From Tubulanus polymorphus (taxonomy: Eukaryota > Animalia > Nemertea), in contig NC_134029.1 in NCBI RefSeq assembly GCF_964204645.1, positions 5,208,001 through 5,272,000 of the forward strand: a stretch of 64,000 bases of DNA, in the 5' to 3' direction. A program made the position numbers and the translations under genes. Within the stretch, counting starts at the first letter, position 1. Each line of letters starts with the position of its first letter. Positions 10,824-62,864 of the stretch are shown piece after piece. Below the pieces are notes generated by a model. That model ran no database searches. It was not told the DNA's origin and saw only the letters and a program-made list of their open reading frames with translations.

Positions 10824-13800
10824 TTAAAGCATCTCGTGCATGACAGGATGTAATAACGACATATGTTCAGCTCCTTTGATCGGCAGTTTGTGGATGGAAT
10901 AATGATGTATCATTTCCGGTATACTCTTATACGGTTGACTGAACTGTCCGAGAATGTACGATCCCTCGCGACACACGATTTTCATGTGCATGAATCCACG
11001 GGCGCTCCTGAAATAATACGTAATAAAATATGTTGTAAGTGACCAGGTATTTCAAGGATATGCATTCCCTAATTATGTCTTCGTGTGGTCAAGGCTTCAG
11101 GTACACATGATACTTACTTGAGTGAGAGTGAAAAATCGTCTTTACTGCTTTCACTATTACGAACGAGATAACTGCCTTCTTTGTGCACTCTCAGCAGATT
11201 TTCAGCATCGACGCGACTGATTGAACCATGATACCACCTATACAGCGAGCAACACAAAGAAAATCAAGATTTACAACTCAATACGCAGACAATGCTTTAT
11301 AGGCATACCAACAATGATCAATAACTAGTTTTCATGCGTAATATACATCCAATCCTAGTTTCAACTTACTCTTGTTTCTTTAGAGGAAGATTAGGATCGA
11401 CTCTTTCACCGACTGACTTGCATGATTGTTCTACATTACGAGGTTTAGGTGGCGGTGGTGGCTGCTGAGGAGGTTCAGACATATGACCTCCTGCTACAAG
11501 AAAATTTAAGATTTTGTTATATCGGTAATAGATATTAAACCCGCATCAGTGTCATCTCAATTCTTATCTTATCCAGATATCAGTGAGGTTCCACCTATAC
11601 ATAAATGTATGTAAAATAATAATGATTAATTCAGATTTCTCATAAATCAAACAAATTTCATAGGTCCGAAATGATCTGGATGAAGTGGTTCTTTCAATAA
11701 TGAGACCTGGAACAAATACAGTAAACTCCGTCTAAATGGGTAGTGTTCGAGCTGTCTTCTTATGAGGTGAGAATCAGTTTTTCCAATGAGTTTCAATTAA
11801 AAGTCACTGACTCACGTGGTTTCTGAGTAAGGAGGCATTTACTGCATCTAAATAGAAAGATTTTCAGAACTGATATACTTTTACGCTCGTTTCAAGGGTA
11901 TAGTGTACTCACCAGACGTTGCTAATTGTTGAAAGACATTTTTCTTGTCCCACGGTTCGTCGTAATCTTCTTTCGGCGGTTGATTCCTCTTCGGTGGATT
12001 ACTGCGCGGTGGTTCGGGAGGTCTATCGCTGCCAGCGTTACGACTGCTAATCGCCGGCCGCTCCACCGGTTTCGAGGCTGACGGTCGCTCGGAGTTAGGC
12101 GGCGGCGGGGGAGGCGGATCTGTGGGAATATTACGCGCAGCGGGGATTGGTTGAGTAGGTACGGGAGGTGGAAGATCAACGGGAATGTTTGAAGGCGCCG
12201 ATGATGGTTGCGTTCGTTCTCGAGGAACAGGCGGAGGAACCGCCGTCTGACGCAGCTGCGAAGGCGGCGTCGCCTGTTGAGGGGGCAGCGAAGGAGGCGG
12301 TTGTGCCGGTAACTGCGGGGGTAACGAAGGCGGGGGTTGCGCCGGTACGGGAGGCGGACCCGAACCCACGCCCGCCTTATTTTCTGGAGACTTGAATTTC
12401 TTAAATTCCGTTTCCGGATCAAAACATAAAAATGTCCACGAATCGCTGCGACTCGCTTCGCGATTTTGAACGATGCCGCCTCGGTATCCGTTAAACGGGC
12501 CGTATCCGTACGACTCCGAACTACTGTCTCCGTCGACGAGGTTGTATTTTTCGCGTAGTTTTTTCTCGAGCGTGTCGTCGCGTTTTTTCGCTTTCACGCG
12601 CGTGTTTCCGGTGCTTTTCGACTCGCGTTCGTTCATCTGCTGTTGGCATTCGTCGCGTTCTTTCGCGTGTTTGTGATGGTGTCCCTCTTTACAGCGCACG
12701 CTCGGATCGAACTGAGTTTCCGCGTGTTTCACTTGCTTACCCTCATTCTGCTCGTGTTTACCCGCGTGTCGAACGCGATCCTGAGCCACCTCGTCTTTGC
12801 CTTTTCGCCGCGGTTTCGGCTGTGGTCGTTTTTTCCCGTCTTTATCTTTCGTCGGTTTAATGGGAGGTTTGTCGCGTGGCGTACGTTCTTTCGGTTCTTT
12901 AACGTCGACCGCGACTGGTTCTTCCTGGTAACGTTTCTCTTCCGTTTTACCTTTTGGTAAGAAGTCCTCCTGTCTGAGGAATCTCGGTCCACCCGCGGAT
13001 TGCTGTCCAGCAGCATCTTTATTAGCCTCGCGTACCGCCCGTTTAATACGACTTTCACCTCCTTTCGGTTTCTCTTTCTCCGCTTCAACTGCCGTGTCTT
13101 TCAACATGAAACTATCCCCATCCAACTGGCCGAATATCTCACCGACCAGCCCGCCCACATCATCCTGCACTTGTATTTGCTCTTCCGTCGCTGAAGTTCG
13201 CTTTTTCGCGGCGCGAAATTTACATTCGAGTTCCTCGGTTTTCGCGCGAAGATCCCACGGTTCTTCGTAATTGCCGGCGCTGAGATTCAAACCGTCGTCA
13301 TCGTCGTCGTCGTTCAGTAAACTCATATCTCTGCCAGCAGAGTCCGAATTTAAAGCGCTGTCCATCATTTTACATATATCCAACTCCATCTGACTCTCCT
13401 TCTCTCTCGCACCGGCTTCGGATCCTTGGTCGAAATGCATCGATTCGCTTTGCGCCATGTCTTTGATTTGAGTGACGAGGCGATTTTTGAACGACCACTC
13501 CCACGGGTCTTCGTAGTCCTCTTTCGGTCGTTCGTCGGCCGGATACTCGGAGAACTCTTCGAATCCGGCGACGTCGTCGAGGTCACAATCGAGAGGATCG
13601 TCGTACAGTTTTCCATCGTCATCTTCAGCATCTAAACTGTATTCTGCAAAACAGAAATACAATCGTCATTTTCAATTCCAGGGATGAGATGCTAGATTCG
13701 GAAATTTTTACATTTTTCCACTTTTTTTAACATTGCGTGTAATTGTTTACAAGTTGTAACAAAATGTAAATACCAATGACCCATCATCAAGTTTCTAGTT

Positions 13801-14828
13801 ATTTGCTTACTTCGTAGCTGTTGAACAGTGTTTTGTGCGTCATATGGTTCTGTATAAGAATCATCCCCGGATGATAAGAAATTCAGCTGAAATTCGCTAC
13901 TTTTGGCATCTAATGGTTCGCTATAGTCATCCAAGTACTGAAAAACATTTCACAAAAACACGGTTTAAATTAACTAGAATTTTGCAGTTCAGTTAATAAG
14001 TAAAGGTTAGGGTTTAGGATTATGTGGTGGTATTATCATTCAGGAAACTTAAGCTTTACGATTATAGGTTGGTAGGTAAGTATGGTAGGTATAATAGGCC
14101 TATGGGAAAATCAAGAAAATGTAACAACTTAAATTTATAATAATAAGGCCCTAATTATTTATACTATCCCAATAGGGTAGGGAATAGTACCAAGGCTTGT
14201 ATAAGTCTTTTAAGCCAATCAAATAATTAAACATGATTTATGGTGAAGCCAGCTGTTGTGGCCTCAGTTTTTAAAAAGTCAAAGTGATAGTGATAACGCC
14301 ATCCATGATATTCCAGTATTGGAATCAGCAATCATCAACTTTTAAGGCTCTAAATCAGGACATATATTTAATAAGTTTGACCCACTCAGTCTAGACAATT
14401 GCGGTCGATGACTCATGAAATAAATAATTGGAAAAGTTGAGATTTTGGCATAAACAATGATTACTCACTTTGTCTTTGCGAGCATTTTCGAACTCTCTGC
14501 TCTTCGCGACTGCAGCTGCAGCCAGACCAGCCGCTAGTTTTTCTCGATTTCTCGGAAATGTGTCTGAAAGGCACGTCTGAAAACTACTCAGTGTGTCGGT
14601 CGGGCTCGCGCCTGTCGGAGGAGAGCAATTGATATCCCCAGTGTCCCGTCTGAGTGGTAATCCCGGTGATGACGGGCTATCTAACCCACCCACGGCCCCC
14701 AATTCACGATCGATCAAATCTCCATCGTCGAAACTTTCTGTTGCCACGCCAAACCTTTTGTTGTAATCGCGTTTTGGCGGTGCCGGGGGAGCTTTTTTAC
14801 CCCCAAATTTCCTCAATAATTTCGCCAT
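10824..14828 (-). CDS. SH2 domain-containing adaptor of the SHB/SHD/SHE/SHF family, ~881 aa, 6 coding exons
   Basis: Exons 14828-14469, 13937-13811, 13643-11913, 11493-11370, 11237-11118 and 11007-10824 join in frame via GT-AG introns (2646 nt). C-terminal [29 protein letters not shown]...SYLVRNSES...GFMHMKI...[16 protein letters not shown] is the SHB-family SH2. Several YxxP motifs (YSEP, YTEP, YDDP, YEDPW, YEEPW, YDEPW). Confidence 0.92.
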
Positions 14829-15146: not shown

Positions 15147-15537
15147 CCAACGAGCGTTGCGGGTACTCCAACCGGTAAAACCCACGACCTTAATCTGATA
15201 ACAATGATTAGATATGTGTTAACAGTATAACATTGGTATATGCAGGTCTACATGCGTCAGTACTTAACTGCTGTTAGAGAACTCAGCGAAGGTAAGCCTT
15301 GGTTCTTCAGTCTCAGTCATTTTTGGCACAGTGCAGGAGGCTCCCAGTCGTTTTTTTAATCGACGAACGTGGTTGTGTTTCGGATCGAGAAAAAAAAGAC
15401 TCATTTGAGTAAAAGTAATTCGAATATTATACATTCCTATGAATATTTATGTATTTAACGAAAAAGCATTAGTCACCCACTAAGTGGGAAATCCCTAACG
15501 AATTGACGTAATTCATTTATTTCATGTTCAGGATACG

Positions 15538-18500
15538 ATGGAAGATGATGCGAATTTGACCTCGCGAGCGCTGACTGATCTTCAACTGGTCTCAGAGACC
15601 GTTCAAGCCGCTGATGGAAAAACTCGACGACGATATGACGAGGCTTTGAAGTTCGGTAACTTACCGTGCGCCTACACGAAAGTCATGCTACTCGGAGATG
15701 CTGGCGTTGGCAAAACGAGCACAAGGAAAATTCTAATGGGAGAAAAACACGAAACTTACGATGGACAAAGTACATTCGGTATCGATAAGCATGTCGTAAA
15801 CGATCGATTTAAACCCGTGGAACCAGACGGAGCGAGCGAATTGGCGAAGGCCGCCGCCCATTTTGCCATCCACGGTAAAAGCGAGCTTCTTACCAACGTG
15901 AAAATACCGCTGTATTTAGTAATAATTCGCCGTCTATGGGTCGCGCTAGGCTTTGTTCTTACATTTTCTTTGGGTATCATTCTGTTTTGTTTCCAAGGAA
16001 TCGAGTTTGGGTTCGCGCCTGTGCTAGCGATAGCGACGTTGGCGACTAGTATGCTTCTGAAGAACCCGGTAACCGGTTTCAACATCGGAAACGGATTAGC
16101 GATCGTTCTAGTAACCGTGAACTATCTCACGTCAGTAGAAATTACGGCATTTTATGCTGAAGACAATTCCAACGAGAAATTCGTGTTCTTAATTGCCTTA
16201 ATGTGCACGACATGCCTCGGTTTTTTAATCGGTTTTATTCTGGCAACCGGTTGCGGAGCTGGAATATCAATAGCAGTTTCTTTAATGTTACCTCCTTTAC
16301 AGACGAATCTCAAACCCTCAATTAACGCTGATGTCGTATTGTACCTGGGACTCGGTGATATCGTAAGAGCCGGTAAAGCCCTACTCCTTATTTCTTTCCT
16401 TGTCATAGGCGTTCTGATACAAAGCAAGGTCGATAACAAGAAACTGACGATAACAATAAAAGCTATGTCCGTCCTTTTTGCGTTGACGATGATTAATGGT
16501 GCAGTCTATATGAATATTTCACTGGAATGGATTCTGTTCGTATGCGCAGGATTGGCATACGGAATTGCGTTCATCGCCGGGCAAAAAGAGGGCCGACGAA
16601 TGTCTAAAATTTTCAAAATTGGTTACGTGAACAGATGTTTCACCGATTTTCTCGGGTGGGAAGTGGGAACGATTCTCGCCCATTTTCTGGGATGGCGACT
16701 ATCATTTGCGGATTTGAACGGCACGAACGCGATGCACCTTGCTCTATCCGTAATCGGAGTTGCTTTGGCTGTTTCGTGTGAGATTTACCGTTGGTATATC
16801 GCTACAAATGACGCCTACCCGGTCGATTTGGTGCGCCGCGAAATACGAGATAACATTCCCGGCACGTGGCCTTTCAAATACTGTCTTTTAGACTGCGCTG
16901 GAAATGAACTTTATCACGTCGGACATCACATATTCATGGCTAAACATTCCGTATATTTGATCGTGTTCAGCCTCGAAGATGCATATCTCCGACCAGAATG
17001 GCAGTTAGAGCGGCTTTTGTATTGGTTGAATTCCGTCTTCGCTCACGCCAGACACAGAGATGCTCTGGTATTCCTCGTCGGTACATTCAAAGCATCGCTC
17101 GAGGAGCAGCAAATTAACCACATCGGTCAATGGCTCAGTAACGAACTGTTCGCTACTTTTGCGGGTCGGCTCGCGTTGAATGAGAAAAGATCGAGGCGCA
17201 TTCCGTTGTTTGCGATCGAAAATCGCTATCGAATTCATAACGTCGGTTGTCCGGATCTCGACGAGTTGCAACGATTGATCAAATTGAAGGTATCAAATGC
17301 CGAATACGCTTCGAGGCCTATTCCGTTGAAGTGGTTCGCTTTTTATGACTTCATCGTCGAGTGCAGAGCATTATGTAAGAATGGACGGCCATCGGTGATA
17401 TCTTGTTTCTTTGATTATCACGATTTGTTCGAGCGCCTGAAAACGCGATGCGGTTTTGAAGAGGAAGCTGAATATTTTCGTATGCTGCAATTTTTTGCCG
17501 ATTTCGGTGAGATTTTCTTTCGCCCGAACGACGCGCGTTTATTCCGGTACGTCATACTCGACCCGAAAATCCTAATCGATAGCGTTGAAGCGTTGGCTGG
17601 AAAATACGCATCGTTTAACGACGACCCGTACGCCGAACGTGCCCGGGATAAACTCGAGAATTCAGGAATCTCTTCGAAAAAATTGCTCGTTAACATACTC
17701 GGCCACGTACCCGGAGCAACAGCGATAAACATACAAATTCTACAATCCCTTGAACTACTTATACCAGTCCATCGTCATTCGGCTGACGATGAATACATTG
17801 TTCCATTTCGGTTGCCGTTAGATTCTCGAAATGCATCATTCCATGATATGAACTACGAAAAATTCTTTTATTTCGACTTCGGATATTTTTACCCCGAGGT
17901 AATATTTATGAATTTGTTGGCGAAGTGCTACACGATGACCCGCCTTACGACCGACCAAGACAACGTTAGACTATCCGAACACGATATCCAGTTTTTCAAA
18001 GATTCGGGAGTTTTTTATTTCGGAGGCAGCGTGGTCTATCGGGTGCAACTGAAACGACCGTCGCCTTCGAGAAACATCATCAAAATTAGCGCTCACAAGT
18101 TGAACGAAGAAGCTGAAACTTTTACCGTCTTTCGACAACTCGACGCCATCGTTAACCTGATACGAATGAAAGACTTCGAATATTTAACCTACGAATGTGG
18201 TTTTCTTTGTCACTGTTTAGTGGACAAAGATTTCGAGCTAGATCGATTTCATTTGAATGTAGTCGCCCGCCACGGAACGACGCAAGATTGGGAATTCCCC
18301 AAAAAAGGCCGCCAGAAGTTTCTATGCCGAGGTGAAATAGAAGAGATCGATTTCGGTTTTCCAGAAGATAAAAGTATCGACTATGAAAACGTGAGTGCTT
18401 ACTCGACGGGTAAAATCATCATGTCAGGTAGCGAGTCTTTGATGATCAAAATATAAGGAAGTATTGAAAAGGAATGAAATGATTGAGGAAACCCCACCCC

Positions 18501-19416
18501 CACCCCTTCCTGAAAGTGTAGGCTATATTTCGTAAGAACTATCATTTCAAAATCATCACGGTTTTGAGATAATAAGCCAATATATATGCGTGTATTTGTA
18601 GAACACAGCATTCATTGAGGGCTTAATAAAAATTGAATAATAATGCCACAACACATGAAAATGGATGTGTGAAACCAGGTTCTAATTCAGTAAACATGCC
18701 GTGAATTAAATATAAAGCATAGAACAGGCGAGCGGGCATTTCGATCGATCGGTGTAATTAATAATATCTTGTCATCAGAGTCGTGCAAATATTAGCTCGG
18801 CAGTGATCATTCAATCTAACTGAACGCGTCCCAACTTTACCGTTATTTGTGCTTTATAAAATATTTCTCTTGCCTAATGATAGACGATGCAATTTACACT
18901 CGAATTTTTCAGGAGCAAGCATTAGCAGAAAATCCAACGGACACCAAATCCGAAGATCATCGCCCGCGTTTCGAAGCATACATATCCTGTTGCCGAGACG
19001 ATCGACCTTGGGTCCAATGCGAGTTGCTGCCGGTTCTCGAGAACGCCGAGACGCCATTTCGAGACGTCGGTTTTTTCGATAAACCGACCGTGGCCATCAA
19101 AGTCAATTACGTCGAAAACCCGAATCCAAACATGAACAAATTATCGCTGTTGCAGATGAGCGCTCGTGATATCGTTTCCTGTAAGACGGCAATAGTAGTA
19201 ATCAGTCGAGATTATCTGATCGATGGCAGGTGCACGCGAGAATTAGACTACATCGTTAAACGCCATAAAACGATCATTCCCATTATCAAAGATGGCTGCC
19301 ATGTGCCCGATTCGCTTTCGACGTTAAAAGTGTTGGACTACGAGTCGTGTCGGAAAGAAGGTTCGTTATTGGGTCGGTTTTATCTTCCGCTCATATACGC
19401 GGTTAAACGAGCATGA
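15538..19416 (+). CDS. Roco-family protein: Roc GTPase split by a multi-pass membrane insert, COR domain, C-terminal TIR domain; ~1118 aa, 2 coding exons
   Basis: Exon 15538-18390 (donor AAC|GTGAGT) joins exon 18913-19416 (acceptor TTTTTCAG|GAG) in phase 0. P-loop KVMLLGDAGVGKTS; switch I STFGID; switch II LLDCAGNELYHVGHHIFM...VYLIVFSL; WLNSV; G4 LVGTFKA; COR-like PIPLKW...MLQFFADFGEIFF...YVILDPKILID; TIR-like AYISCCRDDRPWV..ELLPVLE...SCKTAIVVISRDYL..GRCTREL. Probable 5' UTR exon ends at 15291, with acceptor at 15531. Confidence 0.85.
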
Positions 19417-20220
19417 ACATTGATTTGGATTTTTAAAAGTGTATGCATTAGTATGAGACATCGATAAAAAATGTTAAGATTTCATTCCCAAGTAATTCTC
19501 AGATATATTTATATAGCCTTCTCACTTAAAGCAGCGCCAAATGAAATTATGCGGTATATACTGATTATTCTAGATCAGCTAGTAACACAATTACCAATGT
19601 TTTTCATGATAAATGAATTTATTTTCCGAAAGAAATTGCTCTCTTAATTCGAAATGGATTCATTTCCATCGGTTCATACTTAATTGACTCAAAAATATGT
19701 AGCTTTCTTTTTGCCACTAATCTGATTAATCGTAGTGTAGAAATTATTCTGACGAGAGAAACGAAGATTTCTGGTTGCGTGTCTTTTACAATGATTTCTC
19801 GATTCTATGAAAATCGTCAAATAAAATCTGCTGATTAATTTCTCTATTTTCCGTTCTTCTCGTCGCATTTATTATCTGCAGCGTGTACTTGTCAGAAATG
19901 ATATGTCACAGAATATGAAAACTGCTGCAGATGTTGTAAATGTTACAATGAACTTGACATATTTCACTTGAAATAGACGAATAATCGGATGTATACAATC
20001 AAAAGACATGACTATTAATGGATCACCAGTACATGTACTTCGAAAATTGTCTCTATGCGCAATCACATCACTTATGAATTACGTAATGAATATACCAATC
20101 TCATTAATTCCCAAGCATATCTCTCCGACACATTATTAGTAATGATGACGTTTATACACGTATGAGCATCTGAATGCTACTCTGACAAGCGTTTGTTGAA
20201 CGAGTTGAGTGTTTTTGTAG

Positions 20221-22857
20221 TTATATGCGATCGGTGTCGTTTGTGGTTAATTCAGTTCCGCTGTTTGTAGACTGCTGTGTTTTAACCGACCAAACTGATT
20301 GCTCGCCATTTGCGTCTTCGCCTGGGAAGCACCGTCGACAACATCGACCAGATGACAAAATCGACGAATATGCCTGTCTGAAAAGAAAACGATAAAATGT
20401 CATAATACGATTACTAACTACTATTAACTAATATATCCGTATTGTATACGATATTTTTTATGCTTTATAAGGAAATGCAAAAATGTTTATTCTAACGATT
20501 GAACCTGGAATGAGAAATATCAATGAAAGTCGTGTTATTTCGGTACATGATAAAGTTAGGGATAGGGAAGTTAATGAAATCAATACGCCAAACCCGCGTC
20601 CATTGCTAATCATTTAACGACTTATTCGAGTAATACTCCCAAAACTCGCTCAAGATATCGCCAAAACACTCGTTTCTAGATGAAATGAATAAACTCGTTC
20701 CAGATAAGGACAAAAGACTATGAATAAATATGTGTAAGCCTTTTTGGAAATTAATGAAATAACAGTTGATTTCACACACGTAAAAAATAAACATGCATGC
20801 CCAGTTGTTTCCTCGTGAAAAGTAAATACGCGTAGTATGTATTGGCCCTATATAAATAAAGTCAGCTGGTATCAGTCAGTAACGAATTAATAAATTCATA
20901 GATCATGAATGTGATTGGATTCGTTTGAATACATTAATTCTATTGTAGATGATACGATGTCAAACCATGTGATGTAATCGAATGGCAGATACAAGTCCGA
21001 ACTGTAATGAAAATACGACATAATGAAAATACCCTAGAGGACCATGATTTAGCAATGCGCATTATTCATAGACAGGTGTATCCATTAGTCAGGAAAAGGA
21101 CCCATGTATCTATATATACATGTAATTCGAATTGGCGTTATTGGAATTTCCGAAAGAAAACCAAAAATAAGGCACTTTTTCAAGTGATTGTGACATCGCT
21201 AGCTGCGTGAGTAAGTGACGTTCCTCGTCATTGATTCGCGCATTTTCCCGTCCAGGTTCATGAAAAATGTCGATAGAGAAACAAAACATGATTGGTAATT
21301 ATGGTTCGAATCCCAACACTCATGTCGTTTCTAATGAGGTACACGTGCCTTCCAAGACTTCTATTGAATCAATACCATTTTCAAGGGCATGGAAACGAAC
21401 AATCATTTTCACTGCTATGATTTTGTGCTGTTTTCTAGTGCCGGAAGAAAAATTCACAATAACGGTTTTTCTGTTCAAAACGTGTTTTTCGACTGCGGTA
21501 TGTATCCTGGTTTAGTTGAGATCTACGTAACAGGATTCGATTTGCAAGGACGAAACGCTTTTTTGGCCCACTAAAAGTCCTCGAGTTAACGATCCTGTAT
21601 ATTTATGACGTTTAATGGGACCCCATCAAGCCAACTATTCTCTAAATTAATCACTTCTATCCTTCGTTCCGTGTACTCCAGGAGATACGCCTTCGCATGT
21701 CGGCATCGGGTGATTATTTCTTTTAGTTTGCATTATTGGTGAATACCGTTTCTTATGAAAGTGTATGTAAGTGAATAGTTGAGATAATGAATAGAGTAAA
21801 TTGGACGTAAATACGTGTATATTTGCGATTCACGATGCGAACGTATGGTATATATTACAGAAATATAGACCGTTTTTTGGACATTTTCTGTTTTCAATAA
21901 TTCACTAAGACTGAAGCACAGGTATGGATTCTCGATATTTTCCATTGAGAAACAGGCTGCTACTTACCTGAACTCACTGTTCATGCTGCCGTATATGATG
22001 ACGTTCAAGGCGATTGTCAAACAATATAAGCCTATGGTAACTACATACGCTATTAGAGGCTCTTCGAGGTCACTGTCTACTGTTCGCAGAACGAAAAACG
22101 GCGCATAGCCGAAAAAGCTAACGGAACAAATAAACCCGAAAGTTTTCGTCAAACGTAATTCCATCTGAGCCGAATCGCGGCTAGTAGCTATACTGCGTCT
22201 GTTTGATTCGGACTCGTTCGACGAATTTACGCTGAATCTGTTCAAAGCCGTCGTAGTTTTTTTCACGTAAATTAGAATCGCCGTATAACAGAATATCATC
22301 GTGCAAGCCGGCAGCCCGAAAAGCAACAGTAAGCTGACTATTTTCTGAAATGTTGGAGTATCTGGAATGAAGATACATTTCACGTCCAATCCGTCGTCGT
22401 GAGCCTCTTTAAATTCGTCGTACATCGTCGGAATTAGCGAGGCCGGTGGTAAAATCCAACAGATCATTGTTATCAGTACTCGGCCTCTCCGTCTCTCTAA
22501 AAAGTCCACGCTATGCACCAGACGTAAATATCGCTGTATAGCGATCGATGACTGGGTCAACATGGAAGTACCGTAAAGACACAAGTTTAATATGACGAAA
22601 ATTTGACAAAACAACTCACCGAAATGCCACCCGTTTGATACAAGCGTACAAACCATTATCGGGCAGAGAATGCCCAGAAAAAGTAAGTCCGGAATGCTAA
22701 GGCAAATTACGAAAAATCTCGCCGCCTTCCCGCGAAATAACGAGAACTTAGCAATCGAAATAAGGATCAACACATTGCCGAGTATTCCCGAAATACTGGT
22801 TAATGAAATGACCGTTACTCCGATAATTCGTTCGAGCATCGTGAAAGATTCAGCCAT
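20221..22857 (-). CDS. Rhodopsin-like (class A) orphan GPCR, copy A, ~348 aa
   Basis: Exons 22857-21968 and 20377-20221. Seven hydrophobic helices with GN (TM1), LSIPDLL (TM2), WHFGELFC, IAIQRY, ICW, LP..MIFCY, GYAPF and NVIIY, then helix 8 SEFRQAY and a Cys cluster. Loosely Tre1/Moody/GPR84-like; this sub-assignment is uncertain. Confidence 0.9.
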
Positions 22858-23813
22858 CGTACACAACTGGTTCCTCGGAGCGGCGCTCCACTGTCACATT
22901 TACCATTAAATGTCGCCAGATCAAGTTACGAGCGTCCGTTCTTTAGGTTCCGGTAACACTTGTCATCGACATAGATTCATTCGATGGCTCACATTCCCGC
23001 TCGTTCTCTCTCAATCCATTTCTTTCTTGTTGAATAGGAAATATAGTTCCAGCTGCGGTAGAAATAGTCATTTATTAATTTCAGTGAATGTATATATTTA
23101 CATTTCTAACGAAAGCCTGAATTCTAATAAACCTGAACAAACATTGATTAAACACTCAGTCCAATGAAATATGTACGGAATGAACCATTTATCACCCTCT
23201 AAATAATCCAATACCAAATGATTGGACGATTTGAGGCACTATTTGCCATTTCATGATGTTAAATCGTCTAAAATATCAGCGTGTAAATGTTGCCCGGTTT
23301 TCGCGTCAAATTTAATTAAGCGGGAAGTGCTTCTTTTCGCTGGGAGACGATTCTGATTCGATATTGATAATTCCAACGCTGAAAACTCGTTCAAAATTTG
23401 AAACCACTTCGGAAAATTACGTTGTAAAATGATTCGAGGAGATTCCCACGGTCGAGATACGCGTCGAATCAAAATTTGAGTACATGAATTCTGCATAGCG
23501 AAATCGAAATCGTTCTAGGTCAATACATTTTCATCGGATACTGACTCCGATGGGTCTGAAGTATCCTTTTTCCTGGAGTCAGTTGTACAAATTCTTTTGG
23601 GGTTAGTTCTAGTTCCAAAAGTGGAGTCTATTTGGGTACTCTTAGAAAGGAGAAGCAGCTCCCTCTAAGATTCACTGCGCTCAGAATATTCAAATTGCCA
23701 ATCAAATGATTTCTGAAGTTGCTTCAGAATTATACAGATTCCTGCTAGTTTTAACGGAAGTCTGTTGGCAGTCCATCGTGGTGAATTTATATCGATTCAT
23801 CTGATCACTAGTG

Positions 23814-26964: not shown

Positions 26965-29900
26965 ATGGTCGTTAGAGATATTCCGAAGGTATTTTTCATT
27001 TTCAGCAACAATTCTTTCAAAAATGACGAAGATATTTTCGAACTAGCAATACCGGTACGCTGTGTATTTTTCTACTCTAATAGCATATCAAGCTTTACCA
27101 TCAATCTGTGATATTTTGAAGCCATTTACATATCTTCATTTCCCACCGCCTTGGATTCATTTTGTCGTGTTGTCGCATTCAAAATACAAAATAACATATA
27201 TTCTTCAATAATATGTGTTGCTGTTGTCCGATTGCTTAGGATCGAGGGCTCCAAGCCAACGAACTTAAACTTCTTTACAAAGAAAAACATAGTGACTCGA
27301 ATAGCTTCCCGGTGAATAAAATTCCTTCTCAACAAGTGGATCGCACATCGGATTTATATTACACAATCGAAGAATGTCCACCGTGGTACACATCACTTAT
27401 ATTTGGATTCCAAGTGAGCATGTATTTTTACCATTTAGGGAAAGTGGGTTTTTTTATGTATGAAACGATAGATATGTCAGTATGTCTCATATCTGTATAG
27501 GTTGATATTTTACATTCGAATCTAATTGTAAATTCCATGGCCAATTTCAAGCCTGTCAAAAAGCCTACATTATGTTTTTGAGTCAGAAGAAAAAGAGATT
27601 GAAGAAAAATTTAGTGGCATTAATTTCAGCATTATGTAACACTGTTTGGTGGGACGATTAACATCCCGTTGTTACTAGCAGAACCTCTGTGTATGGGCAA
27701 TGATGAGGTGGCAAAAAGTGAACTTATTGGAACTGTTTTCTTCATGGTCGGTATAGGAACGTTACTTCAAACAGTATTTGGAACGAGGTATTTGCTTACG
27801 ATATGACATACTCTACATATAGTATTTATACTAATGATAAAAAAATCAACCTTAATATGCCCTATTCTAACCTCAAATATAATCAAATTAATCGTCTACA
27901 CCTACGATCTTGAAGACAGCTAAGTCGGCTCAATATGAGCCCAAACTACTGAATACCCGTTATACCCGAAAAAGGATAGAATCAGCTAGAAAACTCCGCA
28001 GAACACGCAAAACATTGTTTTCATCTTCAGATTACCAATCGTACAAGGTTGTTCAGTCGCATTTATAATTCCGACGTTTGCTATTCTATCTTTGCCTAAA
28101 TGGAAATGTCCTGGTCCTCAAAACGGTAAGCAGCAATCCCACTTCATAAAAGGCTAATGGTATCATTAAATTGGAACATCGCTTAACCGCACGATCGTTG
28201 CGTAAACCTATAATTACCGATATGAACGCATTGATTATGTTGCTATTTGTAGCAGCAACTGGTCCGCTGACCAATGTGTCCAGTAATCTAATGGCTACTC
28301 AGAAGCTAATGGCTTCAAACCAGTAATTTTTGGGTGCAAACGAAACCAATCAAGTTTTACTCTCTCCCACCGAAGTTTGGCAAAGTCGTATTCGTGAGGT
28401 AACGATTCGATAAAAGAATAAAAGAAAAATTCGAAATTGCACGAAGCACGGGGTGACGACCTCTTGAAATATTTTAGAATTTTAACTCAACTACTGCGAT
28501 TTTATCATAAAAACGACGTCTCTAAAATTTCAGGTGCAAGGAGCAATAATCGGTGCATCCATGATCCAAATCGTGTTCGGATTTAGTGGAATAATGGGAT
28601 ATATACTGCGGTTCATCGGCCCTATAGTTATTACTCCCACCATAAGTCTAGTCGGACTTTCATTGTTTGTACCAGCGGCGGAGATGGCATCTAAACAGTG
28701 GTGGATTGCGATATCGTAAGTGTCTCTTTTTTCATTACCACGGTATCATTTCTAATATCCTCCAAGGTGTGGATTTCCTCGATGATTTTTTTTCTTCGGT
28801 TTTACCTTATATCCAGCAATTTAGAGCCTAATAGTTCCACATTTATTCAATAGTTGAATTTGAACCCATAAGGATTTATCATTTGTTTTTGTAGGACGGT
28901 TATTCTCATAACGATATTTTCTCAATATATGCGTAACATATCGATACCTTGTCTCAAGTACACGAAAGGTCAAGGTTGCACTAGAACGAGCGGTTTTTCT
29001 CTTTTTACGCAATTTCCGGTAAGCGATAACAATTTCCCTCCAATAATTTGATAAACATCCGGGGGTTCTATAATGTGAATAGGCCTACATATTCGAGAAA
29101 GAGATTCGACTAAGAGGCACTATTTTCGCATTAAGATAATACCGTGGACAACTGAAATGTTCGAATCCTAAAATACATTTCTTTGAATGGAGGCGTTTTT
29201 GTGCATTTTTTCGAAGGTGAATGGTTAATCATATTCAGATTTTTGGAAGGGTCCGTTAGTTTTATTTGTACATGTCTTCAATCGGATCGTCATACATATC
29301 GAAATGCATCCAAGATACTGTAAAAATAGCTACTGATATTCCTATTTCAGTTGATATTGTCGATCCTTATGATTTGGTTGATATGCTTCGTCTTGACAAT
29401 AACTGATGTACTACCAAATGAACCTGATAGCTGGGGCTATGGAGCACGAACTGATACTAGATTATCGGTGATTACGCAGTCTTCATGGTTCAGAGTTCCT
29501 TACCCAGGTATTGGAGACATTTTTCATTGCAATGCTGTCCTAATGCTGTCAAAGTTCAAGTTCAAGTTCAACTTGTCCCCGTTTGTCGATTTTTTAAGAT
29601 TTCCAAATATAAGATCACGTGGCTCATCGTCCAATTTCAAATCAAGATCTTCGGGAATATTTTTTATTTTACGATATAGGTCAGTGGGGAATGCCTACAT
29701 TTAGTGCAGCGGCAGTAGTGGGAATGGTATCTGGAGTCTTGTCGTCGATGGTTGAATCCGTTGGTGACTATTACGCGTGTGCGCGATTATCGGGCGCCCC
29801 TCCACCACCAAAACACGCAATAAATAGAGGTACATAACCCTTATACTGACTCACAAGCAGACAGAGTCACGGTGTGTGTGGATGGGGCCCTGTATATTAT

Positions 29901-31316
29901 ATTCGTATCATTTCAGGAATAGGAATAGAAGGCGTGGCTAGTCTCTTAGCAGGAGTTTTAGGCACTGGAAATGCCATGACTTCTTATAGCGAAAATATCA
30001 GCACTATCGGAATAACTAAGGTTTTTTAGACATGCGCCGAAAGAAAAGCCCGACTGCGAACAAATAGTGTATCACATGAAGCAGCTCACTTGAAATGTCA
30101 ACCGTCAAAATGAATGCTTATGAATCTTGAAAATAACTGAATGTGTGGGCTTTTCTTTTGTCTCAGGCAAAAAAGTGGCCGTTCCCCTGATGACAAAGAT
30201 GATAAGCGAGCGTTTTATTCTTAGGTTGGAAGCCGACGCGTAGTTCAGATAGGGGCATTGGTATCACTCGTTTTCGGTATTCTGGGGAAATTCGGTGCTC
30301 TGTTTGTGACGATACCTGATCCGGTTATCGGTGGGATGTCTCTGATCATGTTCGGTACGACCTCGCGTAACCGAAGAAGTTCTCTCTTCTTCTTCGACAA
30401 AGATCGTGAAATAAAACAGAAAACAAAACAAGAAAACTCCACAACATAGATCTTATGATCATCCACTCCTCGAAAATTCATTTGTTTACATTAATCGTGT
30501 TTGATGTATTTTATGCAGGAATGATCACAGCAGTTGGGCTATCAAATCTACAATACGTTGATATGAATTCAACTCGTAATATCTTCATCGTCGGATTCTC
30601 TATATTTTCTGGATTAACTCTACCGCATTGGCTGACCACACATCCTGGTGCTATAAATACTGGTAAAAGTATAGACATTTTTTGGAAGTTTTATTTCATA
30701 AATCTAAACATTGTGCTTTATTAGATGTATTTGTCCATTTAACCAGTATATTTAAGCCATGGTTAAGCCAGAATAATGATAAAAGATATTGAATCAATTA
30801 TAGGTGCACCAATAGTTGACCAGATATTCACTGTTCTGCTTTCTACATCGATGTTTGTCGGCGGATTTCTTGCATTTTTCTTAGACAACACAATACCAGG
30901 TTTGCAATTTGTAGCAAAGACCCCCAGTTCTACCAGATTCTAAGTCCACACTGGAACAAGTAGCGAACTTAATTTGCATTTAATATACTAGAACTGTGGA
31001 GCTGGACCCAAGAAACCTATATTTCGTTTGTCATTTTTAAGTTTCTACCTATTCTGCACAGCCCTCTATTTTCTAATATTCCAGGTACACTCGCAGAAAG
31101 AGGTTTGGATAAATGGTGTAATGAAAGTAGCGAAACTGAGTTTCTGAAATTGAAAATAAAGGAAACTCGTCAACGTATGATTTTCCATTCGGAATGAATT
31201 TAGTAAGGAAGCACAGATGGACACGATATGTTCCGTTCTGCCCAACGTATGGCGAAGAGACGAATGAGGAACAATTGAAAGTTGTCGGAGATGATCGCGA
31301 TGAAATAGAATTGTAA
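26965..31316 (+). pseudogene. SLC23/NAT nucleobase transporter, disabled copy A
   Basis: Same exon chain as copy B, but in-frame TAA at 28324-28326 (TCA in B), signature ENIG>ENIS at 30000-30002, a -1 frameshift near 31137, and 3' truncation at the duplication junction. Confidence 0.85.
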
Positions 31317-31543: not shown

Positions 31544-33105
31544 CTAAATGCTACTCTGACAAGCGTTTGTTGACAGAATTGAATGGTTTTGTAAATCTAT
31601 GCGATCGGTGTCGTTTGTGGTTAATTCAGTTCCGCTGTTTGTCGACTGTTGTGTTTTAACCGACCAAACTGATTGCTCGCCATTTGCGTCTTCGCCTGGG
31701 AAGCACCGTCGACAACATCGACCTGAAGACAAAATCGACGAATATGCCTGTCTGAAAAGTAAACGATAAAATGTCATAATACGATGACTAACTTTTAACT
31801 GTTGGTAAGATATAGTGGTAACGCATATACTTTATTTTGCATTTTATAAGGAAATGCAAAAATGTTTATTCTGAAAATTAAACTCGGAACGATTATTATC
31901 AATTTAAGTCGTATCATTCGGTAAAGGATAAGTAGTTATATTTAAGTTAATAAATAATAAAGGAAATTAGTTATGTAAAACTGATACGCTAACCCCGCAT
32001 CCAACCCGTTTTGAGATTATGAAAGTGCACGTAATTGGTTAGTTGAGTTTATAAAAAGAGTTAGTTTGACATGGTTATATCGTATTTGCGATGTACGTGA
32101 AACGTGTGGTATATAATAGTAATATAGACCGTTTCTGTTTTCAAAAATTCACTGAGACTGAAAGTAAAGGTATGGTTTTTCGATATTTTCCATTGAGAAA
32201 CAGGCTGCCACTTACCTGAACTCACTGTTCATGCTGCCGTATATGATGACGTTCAAGGCGATTGTCAAACAATATAAGCCTATGGTAACTACATACGCTA
32301 TTAGAGGCTCTTCGAGGTCACTGTCTACTGTTCGCAGAACGAAAAACGGCGCATAGCCGAAAAAGCTAACGGAACAAATAAACCCGAAAGTTTTTGTCAA
32401 ACGTAATTCCATCTGAGCCGAATCGCGGCTAGTAGCTATACTGTGTCTGTTTGATTCGGACTCGTTCGACGAATTTTCACTGAATCTGTTCAAAGCCCTC
32501 GTAGTTTTTTTCACGTAAATTAGAATCGCCGTATAACAGAATATCATCGTGCAAGCCGGCAGCCCGAAAAGCAACAGTAAGCTGACTATTTTCTGAAATG
32601 TTGGAGTATCTGGAATGAAGATACATTTCACGTCCAATCCGTCGTCGTGAGCCTCTTTAAATTCGTCGTACATCGTCGGAATTAGCGAGGCCGGTGGTAA
32701 AATCCAACAGATCATTGTTATCAGTACTCGGCCTCTCCGTCTCTCTAAAAAGTCCACGCTATGCACCAGACGTAAATATCGCTGTATAGCGATTGATGAC
32801 TGGATCAACATGGAAGTACCGTAAAGACACAAGTTTAATATAACGAAAATCTGACAAAACAACTCACCGAAATGCCACGCGTTTGATACAAGCGTACAAA
32901 CCATTATCGGGCAGAGGATGCCCAGAAAAAGTAAGTCCGGGATGCTGAGGCAAATGACGAGAAATCTCGCCGCCTTCCCGCGAAATAACGAGAACTTAGC
33001 TATCGAAATAAGGATCAACACATTGCCGAGTATTCCCGAAATACTGGTTAACGAAATGACCGTTACTCCAATAGTTCGTTCGAGCATCGTGAAAGATTCA
33101 GCCAT
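31544..33105 (-). CDS. Rhodopsin-like (class A) orphan GPCR, copy B, ~365 aa
   Basis: Exons 33105-32216 and 31751-31544. Differs from copy A by 7 residues in exon 1 and has a 17-residue longer C-tail. Confidence 0.9.
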
Positions 33106-34172
33106 CGTACACAACTGGTTCCTCGGAGCGGCGCTCCACTGTCACATTTACCATTAAATGTCGCCAGATCAAGTTACGAGCGTCCGTTCTTTTTGTGCCG
33201 ATAACAGTCGTCATCGACATAGATTCATTCGACAGCTCTCTTTCCCTCTCGTTCTCTCTCAATCCATTTCTCTTTTGCTGAGTAGGAAATATAGTTCAAG
33301 CTGCGATAAAAATAGTCATTAATTTCAGTGAATGTATATATGTAAATATACATTTTTAACGAAAGCCTAAATCCTGATAAACCTGAACAAACATTGATTA
33401 AACACTCAGTCCAATGAAATAAGTACGTAATGAACCATTTATCACCCTCTAAATAATCCAATAGCAAACGATTGGACGATTTGAGGCACTATTTGCCGTT
33501 TCATGATGTTAAATCGTCTAAAATATCTGCATCAAATTCAATTTTGCGGGAAAGTGCATCTTTTCGCTGGGAGACTATTCTGATTCGATATTGATAATTC
33601 CAACGCTGAAAACTCGTTCAAAATTTGAAACCACTTCGTTGTAAAATGATTCGAGGAGATTCTCACGGTCGAGATACGCGTCGAATCAAAATTAGAGTAC
33701 ATGAATTCTGCATAGCGAAATCGAAAGCGTTTTAGGTCAATACGTTTTCATCGGATACTGACTCCGATGGGTCTGAAGCATCCTTTTTCCTGGATTCAGT
33801 TGTTTCAAATCTACAGTTTGAACTAGTTCTAAAAACGAAGTTTATTTTGCTACTCTTAGAATTTAGGAGCAGTTCCCTCTAGAATTTACCGCCCTCAGAA
33901 TATTGAAATTGCCAATCAAAGGATTTCTGAAGTTGCTTGAGAATTACAGATTCCTGCTAGCTATCTAGCTGAGTTGTGTTGACAGTTCTTCCTCATAGAT
34001 ATTTATAGATAGTTCCTGCTTATCAATGTATCATTCGTTATTTTATTCAAATTCCTACCACGATTTGAATATCTCGTGAAATATCAGTGCCGACAGTTCG
34101 TAAAGCGATAAACGCTTGTTCTTTAGTCAATCGTGGTAAATTTACATAGATTCATCTAATGATTACTTAGTG

Positions 34173-35156: not shown

Positions 35157-38100
35157 ATGGTCGTTAAAGATAGTCCGAAGGTATCTTTCTTTTTTTCAGT
35201 GACAGAAATAACAAACATATTTAGATTCAAATACATAACGTAATGTATTTTCTACTAATTTCAAGCCATTTGCGTATCGATCAATTTTTAGTTTTTTGCT
35301 TTCAAAAGATAGAAAATACAATTATCTATTTTGCTGTTTTCCGATTGCTCAGGATCGAGGGGCCCAAGCTGCCGAACTTGAACTTCTTTACAAAGAAAAA
35401 TATAGTAAATCGAATGGCTTTCCAGTGAACGAAAGTCCTGCTCAACAAGTGGATCGCACATCGGATTTATATTACACAATAGAAGAGTGTCCACCTTGGT
35501 ACACATCACTAATATTTGGATTCCAAGTGAGCATATATTTTTTCCATTTAGGGAAACCGGTTTTCTATATAAAAAGCGATATGTCCGTACGCCTCATATC
35601 TGTGTAGGTTGATATTTTACAACGGAGTCAAATTGAGGGGGGACATGGTCAATTTCAATCCGAAAAAATAGTTCACAAGCCTGTCGAAATGCCCATGTCA
35701 GATATATTATGGGGGGAAAAAGATTGAAGAACAAATTTAAATCATTGAGTGGCATCAATTTCAGCATTATGTAACATTGTTTGGTGGGACGATTAGTATT
35801 CCGTTGTTGCTAGCAGAACCTCTGTGTATGGGCAATGATGAGGTGGCAAAAAGTGAACTTATTGGAACTGTTTTCTTCATGGTCGGTATAGGAACGTTAC
35901 TTCAAACAGTATTTGGAACGAGGTATTTCCTTGCGATATTGATATGCTCTCCATATTGTATTTACACTAATGATAAAAAAATCATACATACTACAGTAAG
36001 GAATCGAACAAAATTGCGAACCTTAGTATGCCCTATTCTAACCTTGTAACAACCTAAACCGTCTACTCCTACGATCGTCAAGACAGCGAAGTGGGCTCAA
36101 TCTCAGTCTAAACCATTCGAATACCCGAAATACCCGAAAAAGCATTGAATATGTTAGAAAACTCTGCATAACACTCAGAACATTGTTTTCTTCTTCAGAT
36201 TACCAATCGTACAAGGTTGTTCAGTCGCATTTATAATTCCGACGTTTGCTATTCTATCGTTACCTAAGTGGAAGTGTCCTGGTCCTCGAAACGGTAAGCA
36301 GCAATCCTACTGCATAAAAGGTTAATGGTATCATTAAATCGGAACATCGCTAAACCTATTCATTTTGATCGTTGCGTAAACCAATAATTACCGACATAAA
36401 CGCATTCATTATGTTGCGATTTGTAGTAGTAAGTGGTCCGCTGACCAATGTGTCCAGTAATCTAATGGCTACTCAGAAGCTAATGGCTTCAAACCAGTCA
36501 TTCTTGAATGCAAACGAAACCAATCAAGTTTTGCTCTCTCCCACCGAAGTTTGGCAAAGTCGTATTCGTGAGGTAACGATTCTATAGAACTTTAGTTCTG
36601 GATTTTTAGCACTTGAAAATAGAAAGTTTGAAATTGCACGAAGCACGCGTCGATGACCTCTTTAATCAATTCAGAATTTTAACTCAACTGCTGCGTTTGC
36701 ATCATATAACGACGTCTCTAAAATTTCAGGTGCAAGGAGCAATAATCGGTGCATCCATGATCCAAATCGTGTTCGGATTTAGTGGAATAATGGGATTTAT
36801 ACTGCAGTTCATCGGCCCTATAGTTATTACTCCCACCATAAGTCTAGTCGGACTTTCATTGTTTGTACCAGCGGCGGAAATGGCATCTAAACAATGGTGG
36901 ATTGCGATATCGTAAGTGTAACGATATCATTCCAAATATACTCGAGGGTGCGGAATTTCTTGATGCAATAAGGTTTTACCTTATGTCCAGCAATTTAGGG
37001 CCTAGTAGTTCAAAAGTTGATTGAGAGATGAGTTTGACTCCATTAGGATGGATGCTATGTGTCATTTGTATTTTTGTAGGACGGTTATTCTGATAACGAT
37101 ATTCTCTCAATATATGCGTAACATATCGATACCTTGTCTCAAGTACGTCAAAGGTCAAGGTTGCACCAGAACGAGCGGTTTTTCTCTTTTTACGCAATTA
37201 CCGGTAAGCGATAACAATTTCCCTCTAATAATTTGATAAACATCTGGGGGTTCTCTGATAGAAAATACATATTCGAGAAAATGTCGACTAGCAGACACTT
37301 TTCCCATCACAATAATCTCGTTGACAACTAAACGCTCGAATCACAAAATTTCTTTCTTTGGGTGGAGGCACTGTTGTGCATCTTTTCAAGTGATTAGTTA
37401 TTCATATTCTATAGTGCAAAAGACTTTTTTTATCATTTCAGTTAACAAAAATACATGATCTTTCGAAATGCATCCAAGTTACTGTAAAAATAGCTACTAA
37501 TATTCCTATTTCAGTTGCTATTGTCGATCCTTATAATTTGGTTGATATGCTTCGTCTTGACAATAACTGATGTACTACCAAATGAACCTGATAGCTGGGG
37601 CTATGGAGCACGAACTGATACTAGATTATCGGTGATTACGCAATCTTCCTGGTTCAGAGTTCCGTATCCAGGTATTCGATAAATTTTTCATTGCAATCCC
37701 AGTTTGTCGATTTTTTAAGATTTCCAAATTCAAGATGACGTGGCTCATCGTACAAATGTAAAAATAAGATCATCGGGAATATTTTGTATTTTACGATATA
37801 GGTCAGTGGGGAATGCCTACATTTAGTGCAGCGGCAGTAGTGGGAATGGTATCTGGAGTATTGTCGTCGATGGTTGAATCCGTTGGTGACTATTACGCGT
37901 GTGCGCGATTATCGGGCGCCCCTCCACCACCAAAACACGCAATAAATAGAGGTACATAAACCTTTATACTGACTCAGAAACAGACAGAGTCACAGTGCGT
38001 GAGGATGGGGCCTTTTATATTTTATTTGTATCATTTCAGGCATAGGAATAGAAGGTTTGGCTAGTCTCTTAGCAGGAATTGTGGGTACTGGAAATGCCAT

Positions 38101-39479
38101 GACTTCTTATAGCGAAAATATCGGCACTATCGGAATCACTAAGGTATTTTTACTTGCAATAAAAGCCCTACTGCAAAGAAATACTTTATCATACGAAGAA
38201 ACTCACTCGAAATGTCATCTGCCAAAATGAATGTTTATGAATCTTTAAAATAACTGAATGTGTGGGCTTTTCTTTAGTCACAGGCAGAAAAGTGGCCGTT
38301 CCCCTGATAATGAATATGATAGGCGAGCTTTTATCTTCCTAGGTTGGAAGCCGACGCGTAGTTCAAACAGGGGCATTGGTGTCACTCATTTTCGGTATTC
38401 TGGGGAAATTCGGTGCTCTGTTTGTGACGATACCTGATCCGGTTATTGGTGGGATGTTTCTGATCATGTTCGGTACGACCTCGCGTAACCGAAGAAGTTC
38501 TCTATTGTTCTTCAACAAAGATCGTGAAATAAAACATGAAACATAACAAAAAACTCCACAATAGTTCTTATGATCATCCGATCCTCGAAAATTCATTTGT
38601 TTACATTATCATGTTTCATGTATTTTTAATACAGGAATGATCACAGCAGTTGGGCTATCAAATCTACAATACGTTGATATGAATTCAACTCGTAATATCT
38701 TCATCGTTGGAGTCTCCATATTTTCTGGATTAACTCTACCACATTGGCTGAACACTTATCCTGGTGCTATCAATACTGGTAAAAGTCTAGACATTTTATT
38801 CTATTTCGAATCATTAGATTTGGTTTGAGTGGAAGTTTTATTTCATATATCTAAACATTGTCCTTTATTAGATGTATTTGTCCATTTAACCAGTATATTT
38901 AAGCCATGATTAAGCCAGAATAATGATATCAGATATTCAATCAATTATAGGTGCACCAATAGTTGATCAGATATTCACTGTTCTGCTTTCTACATCGATG
39001 TTTGTCGGAGGATTTCTTGCATTTTTCTTAGACAACACAATACCAGGTTTGTCATTTGTTACAATGACCTCCAGTTCGTCCAATTCTAAAGTCCAAATTA
39101 GAACAAGTAGCGAACTTAATTTGCATTTATTCTACTAGAACTGCGGAACTGGATCCATGAAACTTATATATTTCATTTTTTACAAGTTTTTACCATTCCG
39201 CTCGGCCCTCTATTTTCTAATATTCCAGGTACACTCGCAGAAAGAGGTTTGGATAAATGGTGCAATGAAAGCAGCGAAACTGGAGATACTGAAATTGACA
39301 ATGAAGGAAACTCGTCAACGTATGATTTTCCATTAGGAATGAATTTAGTAAGGAAGCACAGATGGACACGGTATGTTCCGTTCTGTCCAACGTATGGCGT
39401 AGAGACGAATGATGAACAACTGAAAGTTATCGGAGATGATCGCGATGAAATAAGAAGATCAAGCGTAGTGACAGTTTAA
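35157..39479 (+). CDS. SLC23/NAT (NCS2) family nucleobase-ascorbate transporter, intact copy B, ~14 coding exons
   Basis: ATG exon 35157-35180, then [21 protein letters not shown]|[42 protein letters not shown], signature [48 protein letters not shown]. Stop TAA at 39477-39479. Confidence 0.93.
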
Positions 39480-55400: not shown

Positions 55401-56339
55401 AAAAGCAAACTGATGGTACATATTCTTAATTCTAATGTATTTCAGTTGATCATTCCGATTATGTTTTCCCCGGAAGGTTGGGCGAAGGTTCTCGAACAGC
55501 TCCTGCTACTGATACTAATTATTGGAAGATGGCTGTTACCCAAGGGTAAAATCACACGTGATCAGCTATCTCAACTACTACTGGTTTATATAGGAATGGC
55601 GGCCGATATATTAGAGTTGTTTGAGGCGTTTAAAGAGGATATTGTCCAAACGAATATAATTCTAACCATGGCGATTCTTGGATGTTGGTCGTTGAGCGTG
55701 TTGCAATTTTCGTTGGTCGTCACTTCGACTAGAAAACGCAGTAAACGGAAGCGGAAATGGCATCACGACCACTGTTGTTTCTGTTGCGAGACGGAGATAT
55801 GGGCGATAGCTACTACGGTGTTAATGCAAGATCTGCCATTTCTCGTCTTGAGACTTTTGCTCATCGTTAAATTTAAAGTGTTGAGTTATATGAATATATT
55901 TTTCACGTGTAAGAACACGTTGGTCGTATTGCTGCAGGTGTACCGAGGCTTTACCCTGTGTTACGAGCGCGAACGAGTCCTCAAAAAGAACGGCGAAATC
56001 ACGCTCGTACGTCACGTGAGCACGACGGCGAATTTGTGCGAGCATTCGCGAGACTATTCCTGGAAAAGTCTCAGCATGACGACCGACCTCTCACCGGAAA
56101 CTGATATTACTGACGTCCGACCGATAATAAAGCGAAGAACGGATTTGATGCTTCCGAGTCCAGAATCGTGGCACGAAGATGCCGACGCAAAAAGCCAAGC
56201 CGTGACGCCGCAGAACTGTAACTATCTACCACAGACTCGTATACCACCCAGCATTTCATACGAGTTAGAACGAGCGAACTCTATCCAACGAAACATTAGG
56301 AACACTCCAGCGTATATCGCTGACACGGAAGATTTGTGA
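49430..56339 (+). CDS. TMEM26: Transmembrane protein 26 family, ~431 aa, 3 coding exons
   Basis: Exons 49430-49623, 54292-54499 and 55446-56339 join in frame (1296 nt). Family motifs GEWKWFCPSVFLYL, EQLLLLILIIGRWLLPKGKITRDQLSQLLLVYIGMAADILE, QDLPFLVLRL, FFTCKNTLVVLLQVYR. Confidence 0.9.
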
Positions 56340-61477: not shown

Positions 61478-62864
61478 AACCAAAAAAGGAAGCGCCGCTA
61501 TAGCGATAAAGATAATAATGTTTTATTTAAGAATTAAATAACACTATAAAGTAGTAGCAATTAGTACAAAATATTGTAAAATAGGACGTTGGACGACAAG
61601 TGAAGTTACAATAAACTTATCAGTCGCCCACACACTCACATTCACGCCCCATTCATACATACAACTTACATGACAAAAACATTCAACATAGAAAATATGA
61701 TAATTCCAGGATATTCAGTATATTAGATTGATCAATTAGAAGTACATAATTTCATCTAAACAAATTGGGAAATGAGATGATTTTTTACAGTATTTCCAAA
61801 CGACGAGATAGAATGACATAATTTCAGATTTTTCTGCACAGAGTTCCAGAGTTTTGGGCCATTGTGGATTATTGTAAATTGCCTATAATTATGCTTTGTG
61901 AAAGTTACATCTAATTCCTTACATCGACGTGTATTGTGGTTGTGTTTAACTTTGTAAATAAATTATTTTATCGCTTGGGAAGTAGGTCATTTATAGATTT
62001 AAACATGAAGTGTAGAACTTGTTGATTATTGATATCGAATATTGTGAGTTGTTTCGTAGATTTGAATAATGGTCCTGAATGTTCTAGGTAATGTTTCTTA
62101 TTTATTATGCGCGTAGCTTTTTCTGTAGGGTATAGAGATTATTTAGTCTAGAGGGGTAGTTGTTAGCCCCGACGATATTACAGTATTGTATGTGAGGTAA
62201 TGCTAATGATTGATATATTGATATATATTGATACATTGAGTTATTTTTGATAGAATCAAAACTATTTGATTCGGATTGGTTTTGTGTCTATGAATTTTGA
62301 TTTATTTTGGTTAGATGATACGCCGTTAGTCTGGATTCGACATCGATTATCAGTTAATTTACCATGATGGTTGTCACGTTTGAAAGTAGAATATATACAG
62401 TATAGAATTTTCCTTTTGTTCCTTTTTGTTCTAATGGATATCTTAGTTGCAAAACATATCGGATTTTGTTGATAAACTCAGGTCATTAATTCATACTCGG
62501 TCGTTGAGAACAAAGCAAGTTTACAGTTATCGCTAATGATGGTGGTATGATGACGGCACAGTGGCTATTATTATTCTTCCCATTCTGCTGTGGAATGGTA
62601 GGTTCTGGTGAGAAAGACGGAGGTCGTATTGAGAACGGATTGTTGGGTGTTATTTACATACCAAAGGAAAATTGACAATTGAAAATTGCGTAATCACCGA
62701 TAATCTAGTATCAGTTCGTGCTCCATAACCCCAGCTATCAGGTTCATTTGGTAATACATCAGTTATTGTCAAGACGAAGCATATCAACCACATTATAAAG
62801 ATCGACAATATCAACTGAAATGGGAATATCAGTAGCTTTTTTTACAGTAACTCGGATGCATTTC

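Follow-up and report, generated by a model that had tools for sequence, protein, structure and literature searches.

The 64,000-nucleotide window analysed here (Tubulanus polymorphus, NC_134029.1, positions 5,208,001 to 5,272,000) encodes a protein with a Roc domain, a COR region and a TIR domain, in which a stretch of about 370 residues, containing ten predicted transmembrane (TM) helices, separates switch I from switch II within Roc. By its Roc-COR core the protein belongs to the Roco family, with a non-canonical G4 motif, and the predicted bundle makes it a new architectural variant of that family, conserved across four phyla. The novelty is the membrane bundle, as Roc-COR-TIR itself is already known from Aplysia and anemones. 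We give about even odds to the view that the bundle acts as an input controlling TIR clustering. That the protein stands for a so far undescribed family of bilaterian membrane receptors built from a single chain, with a ten-helix sensor grafted into the Roco interswitch and swappable TIR or Death outputs, is a more tentative proposal, to which we give somewhat less than even odds.

Gene structure and splicing

Two open frames are found at this locus, one of 985 codons at 15499-18456 and a second at 18820-19416. Joining 15538-18390 to 18913-19416 across a phase-0 GT..AG intron gives a product of 1118 amino acids (aa), identical to RefSeq XP_074650075.1 ("uncharacterized", LOC141905184 isoform X2, Tubulanus polymorphus). 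The start codon, the motif and intron positions and the protein length given by an earlier, sequence-only reading of this DNA were all confirmed (Table 1).

Junction evidence was taken from assembled contigs of sequencing runs from two studies, whose run type is not on record. The 18390/18913 joint, postulated earlier to attach the TIR exon, is present in one of the four runs of the first study (X2, with 30 letters on the short side) and in one of the two runs of the second (X5, 55 letters), while run X6 gave no cover. The same X2 contig is unbroken over the long exon, and the insert is therefore retained in the mature transcript; this contig and the RefSeq model exclude both a wrongly joined gene model and removal of the insert by splicing. 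Contigs of runs X3 and X4 continue through the intron and may be DNA or unspliced RNA, and a 10 kb contig of run X1 extends across it. Read-through into the intron reaches a stop after 21 codons (18391-18456), so that intron retention would give a 972-aa form lacking TIR. RefSeq isoform X1 combines a donor within the TIR exon with an acceptor near 20271 (19361-20270), replacing the last TIR helix, and isoform X3 also terminates early. No isoform X1 junction was seen among the contigs of the two studies. The phase-0 intron between COR and TIR would fit exon shuffling.

The acceptor of the long exon sits seven bases before the ATG, and a 5' exon was sought upstream of it and not found. Since an in-frame stop lies nine codons upstream of the nearest strong upstream donor (15292) and homologues start about 50 residues ahead of the P-loop, a hidden LRR N-terminus is unlikely. 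The Pfam scan of the protein likewise gave no LRR or kinase domain, in agreement with the earlier reading.

The split Roc domain and its predicted membrane bundle

Pfam matched Roc as two stretches above the cut-off (36.7 vs 27 bits). All nine windows with a Kyte-Doolittle value of at least 1.4 lie within the insert, between switch I and DCAG, and none outside, so the split Roc domain with a multi-helix insert proposed earlier is upheld. In a structure model of 597 aa the Roc halves reassemble into a Ras-like fold, as anticipated, and they are predicted to close into one G domain.

Averaging the hydropathy profile over the family gives ten peaks, the even helix number that the sequence-only reading called for. 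The loops on the Roc side hold 107 Lys and Arg in 669 residues, compared to 31 in 542 on the far side, a bias with the same direction in all nine sequences; N-glycosylation sequons number 11 on the far side and three on the Roc side. Because of these two distributions and the ten helices, both bundle ends are predicted to be cytosolic (N-in/C-in), which would place the two Roc halves on the same membrane face, together with COR and TIR. Six positions (G184, A188, G238, G348, G352 and E415) are invariant in 9/9 sequences and R353 is kept in eight of them. Within the bundle, these conserved Gly, Ala, Arg and Glu residues are concentrated toward its cytosolic half.

The motifs of a Roc G domain are partly canonical. 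G1 (GxxxxGKT), the G2 Thr and G3 (DxxG) are intact here (P0003), in the paralogue (P0007) and in P0008, and COR follows directly after Roc, but the canonical G4, (N/T)(K/H)xD, is replaced by GTFKA, in which the Asp is absent. The corresponding motif is GTHRA in P0007, GTRKA in P0008 and GTRRE in the crinoid protein. Three of the seven bundle members examined, from Ptychodera and Branchiostoma, have GTHRD, as do the soluble relatives L001 and L002, and LRRK2 has GTHLD. By this alignment, the guanine-specifying Asp is lost in the nemertean-side branch, where the altered G4 may have made the site less specific for its nucleotide. Because of this loss, guanine specificity and a normal GTP cycle are doubtful in this protein. 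The GTPase domain claimed earlier thus stands as regards G1 to G3, but not as regards G4.

Table 1. Features of the split Roco gene; positions are those of the window
Feature	Position	Strand	Basis
Long coding exon (Roc-N, TM bundle, Roc-C, COR)	15532..18390	+	Acceptor AG 15530-15531, ATG 15538; run X2 contig covers exactly 15532-18390
Roc N-half: beta1, P-loop GDAGVGKT 15694-15717, switch I STFGID 15769-15786	15670..15792	+	Motif positions and Pfam
Cytosolic linker and helix ahead of TM1	15793..15936	+	Similar flanking helix in soluble relatives
Predicted 10-helix membrane bundle, aa 134-416	15937..16785	+	Family hydropathy and alignment
TM1	15937-15993	+	Predicted
TM2	16009-16062	+	Predicted
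TM3	16084-16137	+	Predicted
TM4	16183-16245	+	Predicted
TM5 (short)	16255-16293	+	Predicted
TM6	16369-16419	+	Predicted
TM7	16447-16500	+	Predicted
TM8	16528-16584	+	Predicted
TM9	16642-16695	+	Predicted
TM10	16732-16785	+	Predicted
Post-TM linker helix with invariant P428, into beta3	16786..16872	+	Alignment
Roc C-half: G3 DCAG 16891; G4 GTFKA (T516 17083, A519 17092); G5-region FAIENR 17209	16873..17307	+	Motifs and alignment
COR region	17308..18327	+	COR-A Pfam E 6e-4, below cut-off
Intron between COR and TIR, 522 nucleotides, phase-0 GT..AG	18391..18912	+	Sequence and contig junctions
TIR exon	18913..19416	+	TIR_2 above cut-off; alphaC Glu E1061 at 19240; stop 19414-19416

Homologues and conservation

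A profile built from three sequences, insert only, was read against 1.84 billion proteins (E up to 0.001) and gave nine matches: two from the nemertean Tubulanus, two from the hemichordate Ptychodera flava, one each from the amphioxus Branchiostoma lanceolatum and the crinoid Anneissia japonica, and three further records. Seven of these carry both Roc halves around the TM segment, with a G1-G3 spacing of 399-416 residues (P0007 being used in place of its isoform P0004), and the other two are fragments with a Roc motif on a single side, either switch I or the start of G3. The paralogue, LOC141901616, has the whole architecture including TIR, at 43% identity. A compositional false match among hydrophobic inserts was ruled out by reversed and local 10-residue-shuffle controls, since in all ten tests none of 200 reached the real score. 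The matches had first been selected with a nemertean-side profile, which makes that control direction circular, and the group label 'spiralian_clade' used in the tests includes records without a taxon. With a profile from the deuterostome TM1-TM10 alone, the Tubulanus protein scores 59 bits vs a shuffle maximum of 17. On these comparisons the bundle is homologous between one protostome phylum and three phyla of deuterostomes. Under vertical inheritance it would date to the bilaterian ancestor; since the search profile was built from three sequences, other lineages may have been missed. The Roc tree, with support of 65/87 and long branches, lacks the resolution to trace the insert to one origin.

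In the soluble Roc-COR relatives L001, L002 and P0009 the corresponding slot is occupied by a hydrophilic insert, and the helices flanking it are similar. The grand average of hydropathicity of the insert is +0.71 to +0.90 in membrane members vs approximately -0.85 in these relatives. By this alignment, the slot is a known site of variation, filled by a predicted membrane domain in the bundle family. L001 (1596-5058) and L002 (3866-7200) come from a metagenome assembly; both genes contain introns, and their insert is acidic and rich in Ser. L003 was rejected as a relative, being a false match in a bacterial contig.

Concerning the C-terminal regions, COR-A is above the cut-off in the aligned homologues P0008 and P0015, and a weak COR-B is found in P0013 and P0015. 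TIR_2 scores 33.3 vs 28 bits (32.8 in the paralogue), and the alphaC Glu is present as CTREL here and as CMAEL in the paralogue. Both nemertean genes end in TIR. However, a Death domain takes the C-terminal place in the full-length proteins from Ptychodera and Branchiostoma, and TIR is therefore swappable and outside the core design. The Roc-COR-TIR design put forward by the sequence-only reading thus describes this gene, in which TIR is present and spliced, but not the core of the family. In the ESM Atlas a homologue is grouped among Roc-COR-Death clusters.

The insert had no significant match among PDB sequences (best E 1.2) or Pfam families, and none in the ESM Atlas or phage records. NCBIfam and PADLOC scans of whole proteins gave no match for the bundle, nor did plasmid records searched with P0011 or prokaryote genomes and metagenomes searched with alignment A3. 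A word-indexed search with the insert was also blank, which means little as it missed even the paralogue. DUF4396 appeared in one of eight proteins scanned, below the cut-off (E 0.005). No internal 5+5 helix repeat was detected by hhalign. Fold searches with the 597-aa model were uninformative on the bundle fold, with GTPases filling the lists and Foldseek membrane rows having a root mean square deviation above 20 Å.

Comparison with known systems

Compared to the Roco proteins LRRK1/2, DAPK1, MFHAS1 and those of C. tepidum and M. barkeri, the Tubulanus protein has no LRR, ANK or kinase, contains the predicted TM insert inside Roc and has lost the G4 Asp. Toll-like receptors (TLRs) are also membrane proteins with a cytosolic TIR, and the TIR here has a weak sequence likeness to those of Hydra TRR2, TLR6 and TLR10 (E 0.1-1). 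However, TLRs are single-pass proteins with an LRR ectodomain, whereas this protein is predicted to be polytopic, with ten helices instead of one, no LRR in Pfam, and Roc-COR between membrane and TIR. TM segments inside an NTPase domain were reportedly described for the KAP family by Aravind in 2004. KAP proteins form a different NTPase class with a Walker B motif, whereas here Pfam gives Roc/Ras and no KAP match and the model fold is Ras-like, so the likeness is one of analogy, not homology. KAP inserts are also smaller, with up to about four helices. As far as described, KAP-family P-loop NTPases such as Kidins220, PifA and Tmn combine TM segments within the NTPase domain with fused effectors, as here (PMC13552941).

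Roc-COR-TIR or Roc-COR-Death proteins have been described in Aplysia (PMC9334734), in anemones (NG1/NG3; PMC5094078) and in prokaryotes, including AP-GTPase systems (PMC8195603). These share Roc-COR with a swappable TIR or Death effector but, going by their descriptions, have LRR, MBT or EF-hand and no polytopic insert inside Roc; the strings 'GTPase+TM' and 'TM+COR' do not occur in the searched text of the supplements of PMC8195603. Brown algal ROCOs are described as having insertions within Roc (PMC11378527), some with C-terminal TM anchors (PMC3341825). According to the same accounts, Ectocarpus ROCOs (PMC3341825) and anthozoan TM-NLRs (PMC5094078) are likewise membrane-attached immune-type switch proteins, although their TM segments are terminal (one or two C-terminal, or three to five N-terminal) instead of inside the nucleotide-binding domain. 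In the literature searched, outside which most subscription papers and most supplements fell, no account of a Roc domain holding a polytopic bundle was found. Within that range, the earlier reading, which recognised no characterised protein with this architecture, holds.

Possible function of the bundle

The conserved Gly/Arg/Glu cluster, which lies in the cytosolic half of the bundle, might sense a ligand, a lipid or a membrane change. The change in the bundle would then move the beta2-beta3 interswitch, shifting the nucleotide state and COR-mediated dimerisation. This would bring together the TIR domains, or the Death domains in hemichordate and amphioxus members, for immune or cell-death signalling. 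The bundle would substitute for the LRR sensor of other Roco proteins, and one polypeptide would work like a fused receptor, G protein and effector. COR-mediated dimerisation of Roco proteins is described as established (PMC4104024), and the Arf interswitch, as presented in PMC2063696, is a precedent for relaying membrane contact to the nucleotide site. The protein is likely an old, overlooked type of membrane-embedded immune or stress receptor.

Several observations weigh against an input role. The bundle is the least conserved core part, with a mean identity of 20%, compared to 28% in COR and 48% and 42% in the two halves of Roc, and its luminal loops are short, without an ectodomain. The bundle-Roc linkers and the beta2-beta3 region have a predicted local distance difference test score below 50, and tight bundle-Roc coupling is therefore not visible in the model. 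Moreover, the G4 Asp is absent in P0003, P0007 and P0008, and the crinoid protein as annotated lacks an effector domain. Non-enzymatic TLR TIRs, too, commonly have the alphaC Glu.

The low identity and low-confidence linkers would equally suit a bundle that is only an anchor or targeting module, tethering a Roco switch to a single organelle or membrane, where its local concentration would rise, with activation by other proteins. The slot also tolerates unrelated, disordered inserts in soluble relatives, and C-terminally TM-anchored Roco proteins are described in Ectocarpus (PMC3341825). We consider this unlikely, as an anchor would need neither ten helices of near-constant span nor an invariant Gly/Glu set and a near-invariant Arg kept across protostome and deuterostome members. 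The G4 motifs of P0003, P0007 and P0008 suggest another possibility, in which Roc of the nemertean branch is a degenerate or non-guanine-specific site and the protein a membrane scaffold or receptor that clusters TIR without a GTP cycle. This is rather improbable, since all three proteins retain the P-loop, the switch I Thr and DxxG, and the strongest conservation is found in the Roc halves. More improbable still is a reversed signal, as proposed for KAP/Tmn NTPases, in which the bundle would be an effector (channel, pore, transporter or scramblase) that the nucleotide cycle of Roc gates, and TIR/Death an added output or adaptor: Gly-rich helices, the short TM5, conserved charged residues near the membrane boundary, the effector-less annotation of one member and the plasmolysis described for Tmn-type NTPases with TM helices after Walker A (PMC13552941) fit it, but no channel or transporter family was matched significantly in Pfam, NCBIfam or PDB sequences, no internal repeat was detected, and a signalling domain is present in the full-length members from nemertean, hemichordate and amphioxus.

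How the Roc switch of LRRK2-type proteins receives its inputs is still an open question. With the bundle as input, a natural Roco protein that has a membrane bundle in the interswitch would be a compact example in which coupling from membrane to Roc could be tested. The family would also be a candidate class of polytopic receptors for invertebrate innate immunity beyond TLRs and NLRs, built on an uncharacterised, predicted ten-helix membrane domain kept across four phyla.

Neighbouring features

Head to head with the Roco gene, approximately 700 bp apart, lies a minus-strand gene at 11881-14828 (ATG near 14828). It encodes three YxxPW motifs (YEDPW, YEEPW and YDEPW) and Pro-rich stretches reminiscent of SHB/SHF-type adaptors, and has no Pfam match. 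Further along the window, two near-identical rhodopsin-family G protein-coupled receptor frames occur on the minus strand (21964-22893 and 32212-33141) in a duplication of about 10 kb. A second duplication, spaced by about 8.1 kb and with 85-98% identity, covers approximately 27200-31000 and 35300-39100. An exon of an ACE-like M2 peptidase was identified at 42620-43441 and a weak thioredoxin-like exon at 59479-59982, and duplicated TMEM26 last exons are present about 7 kb apart at 55401-56339 and 62799-63410.
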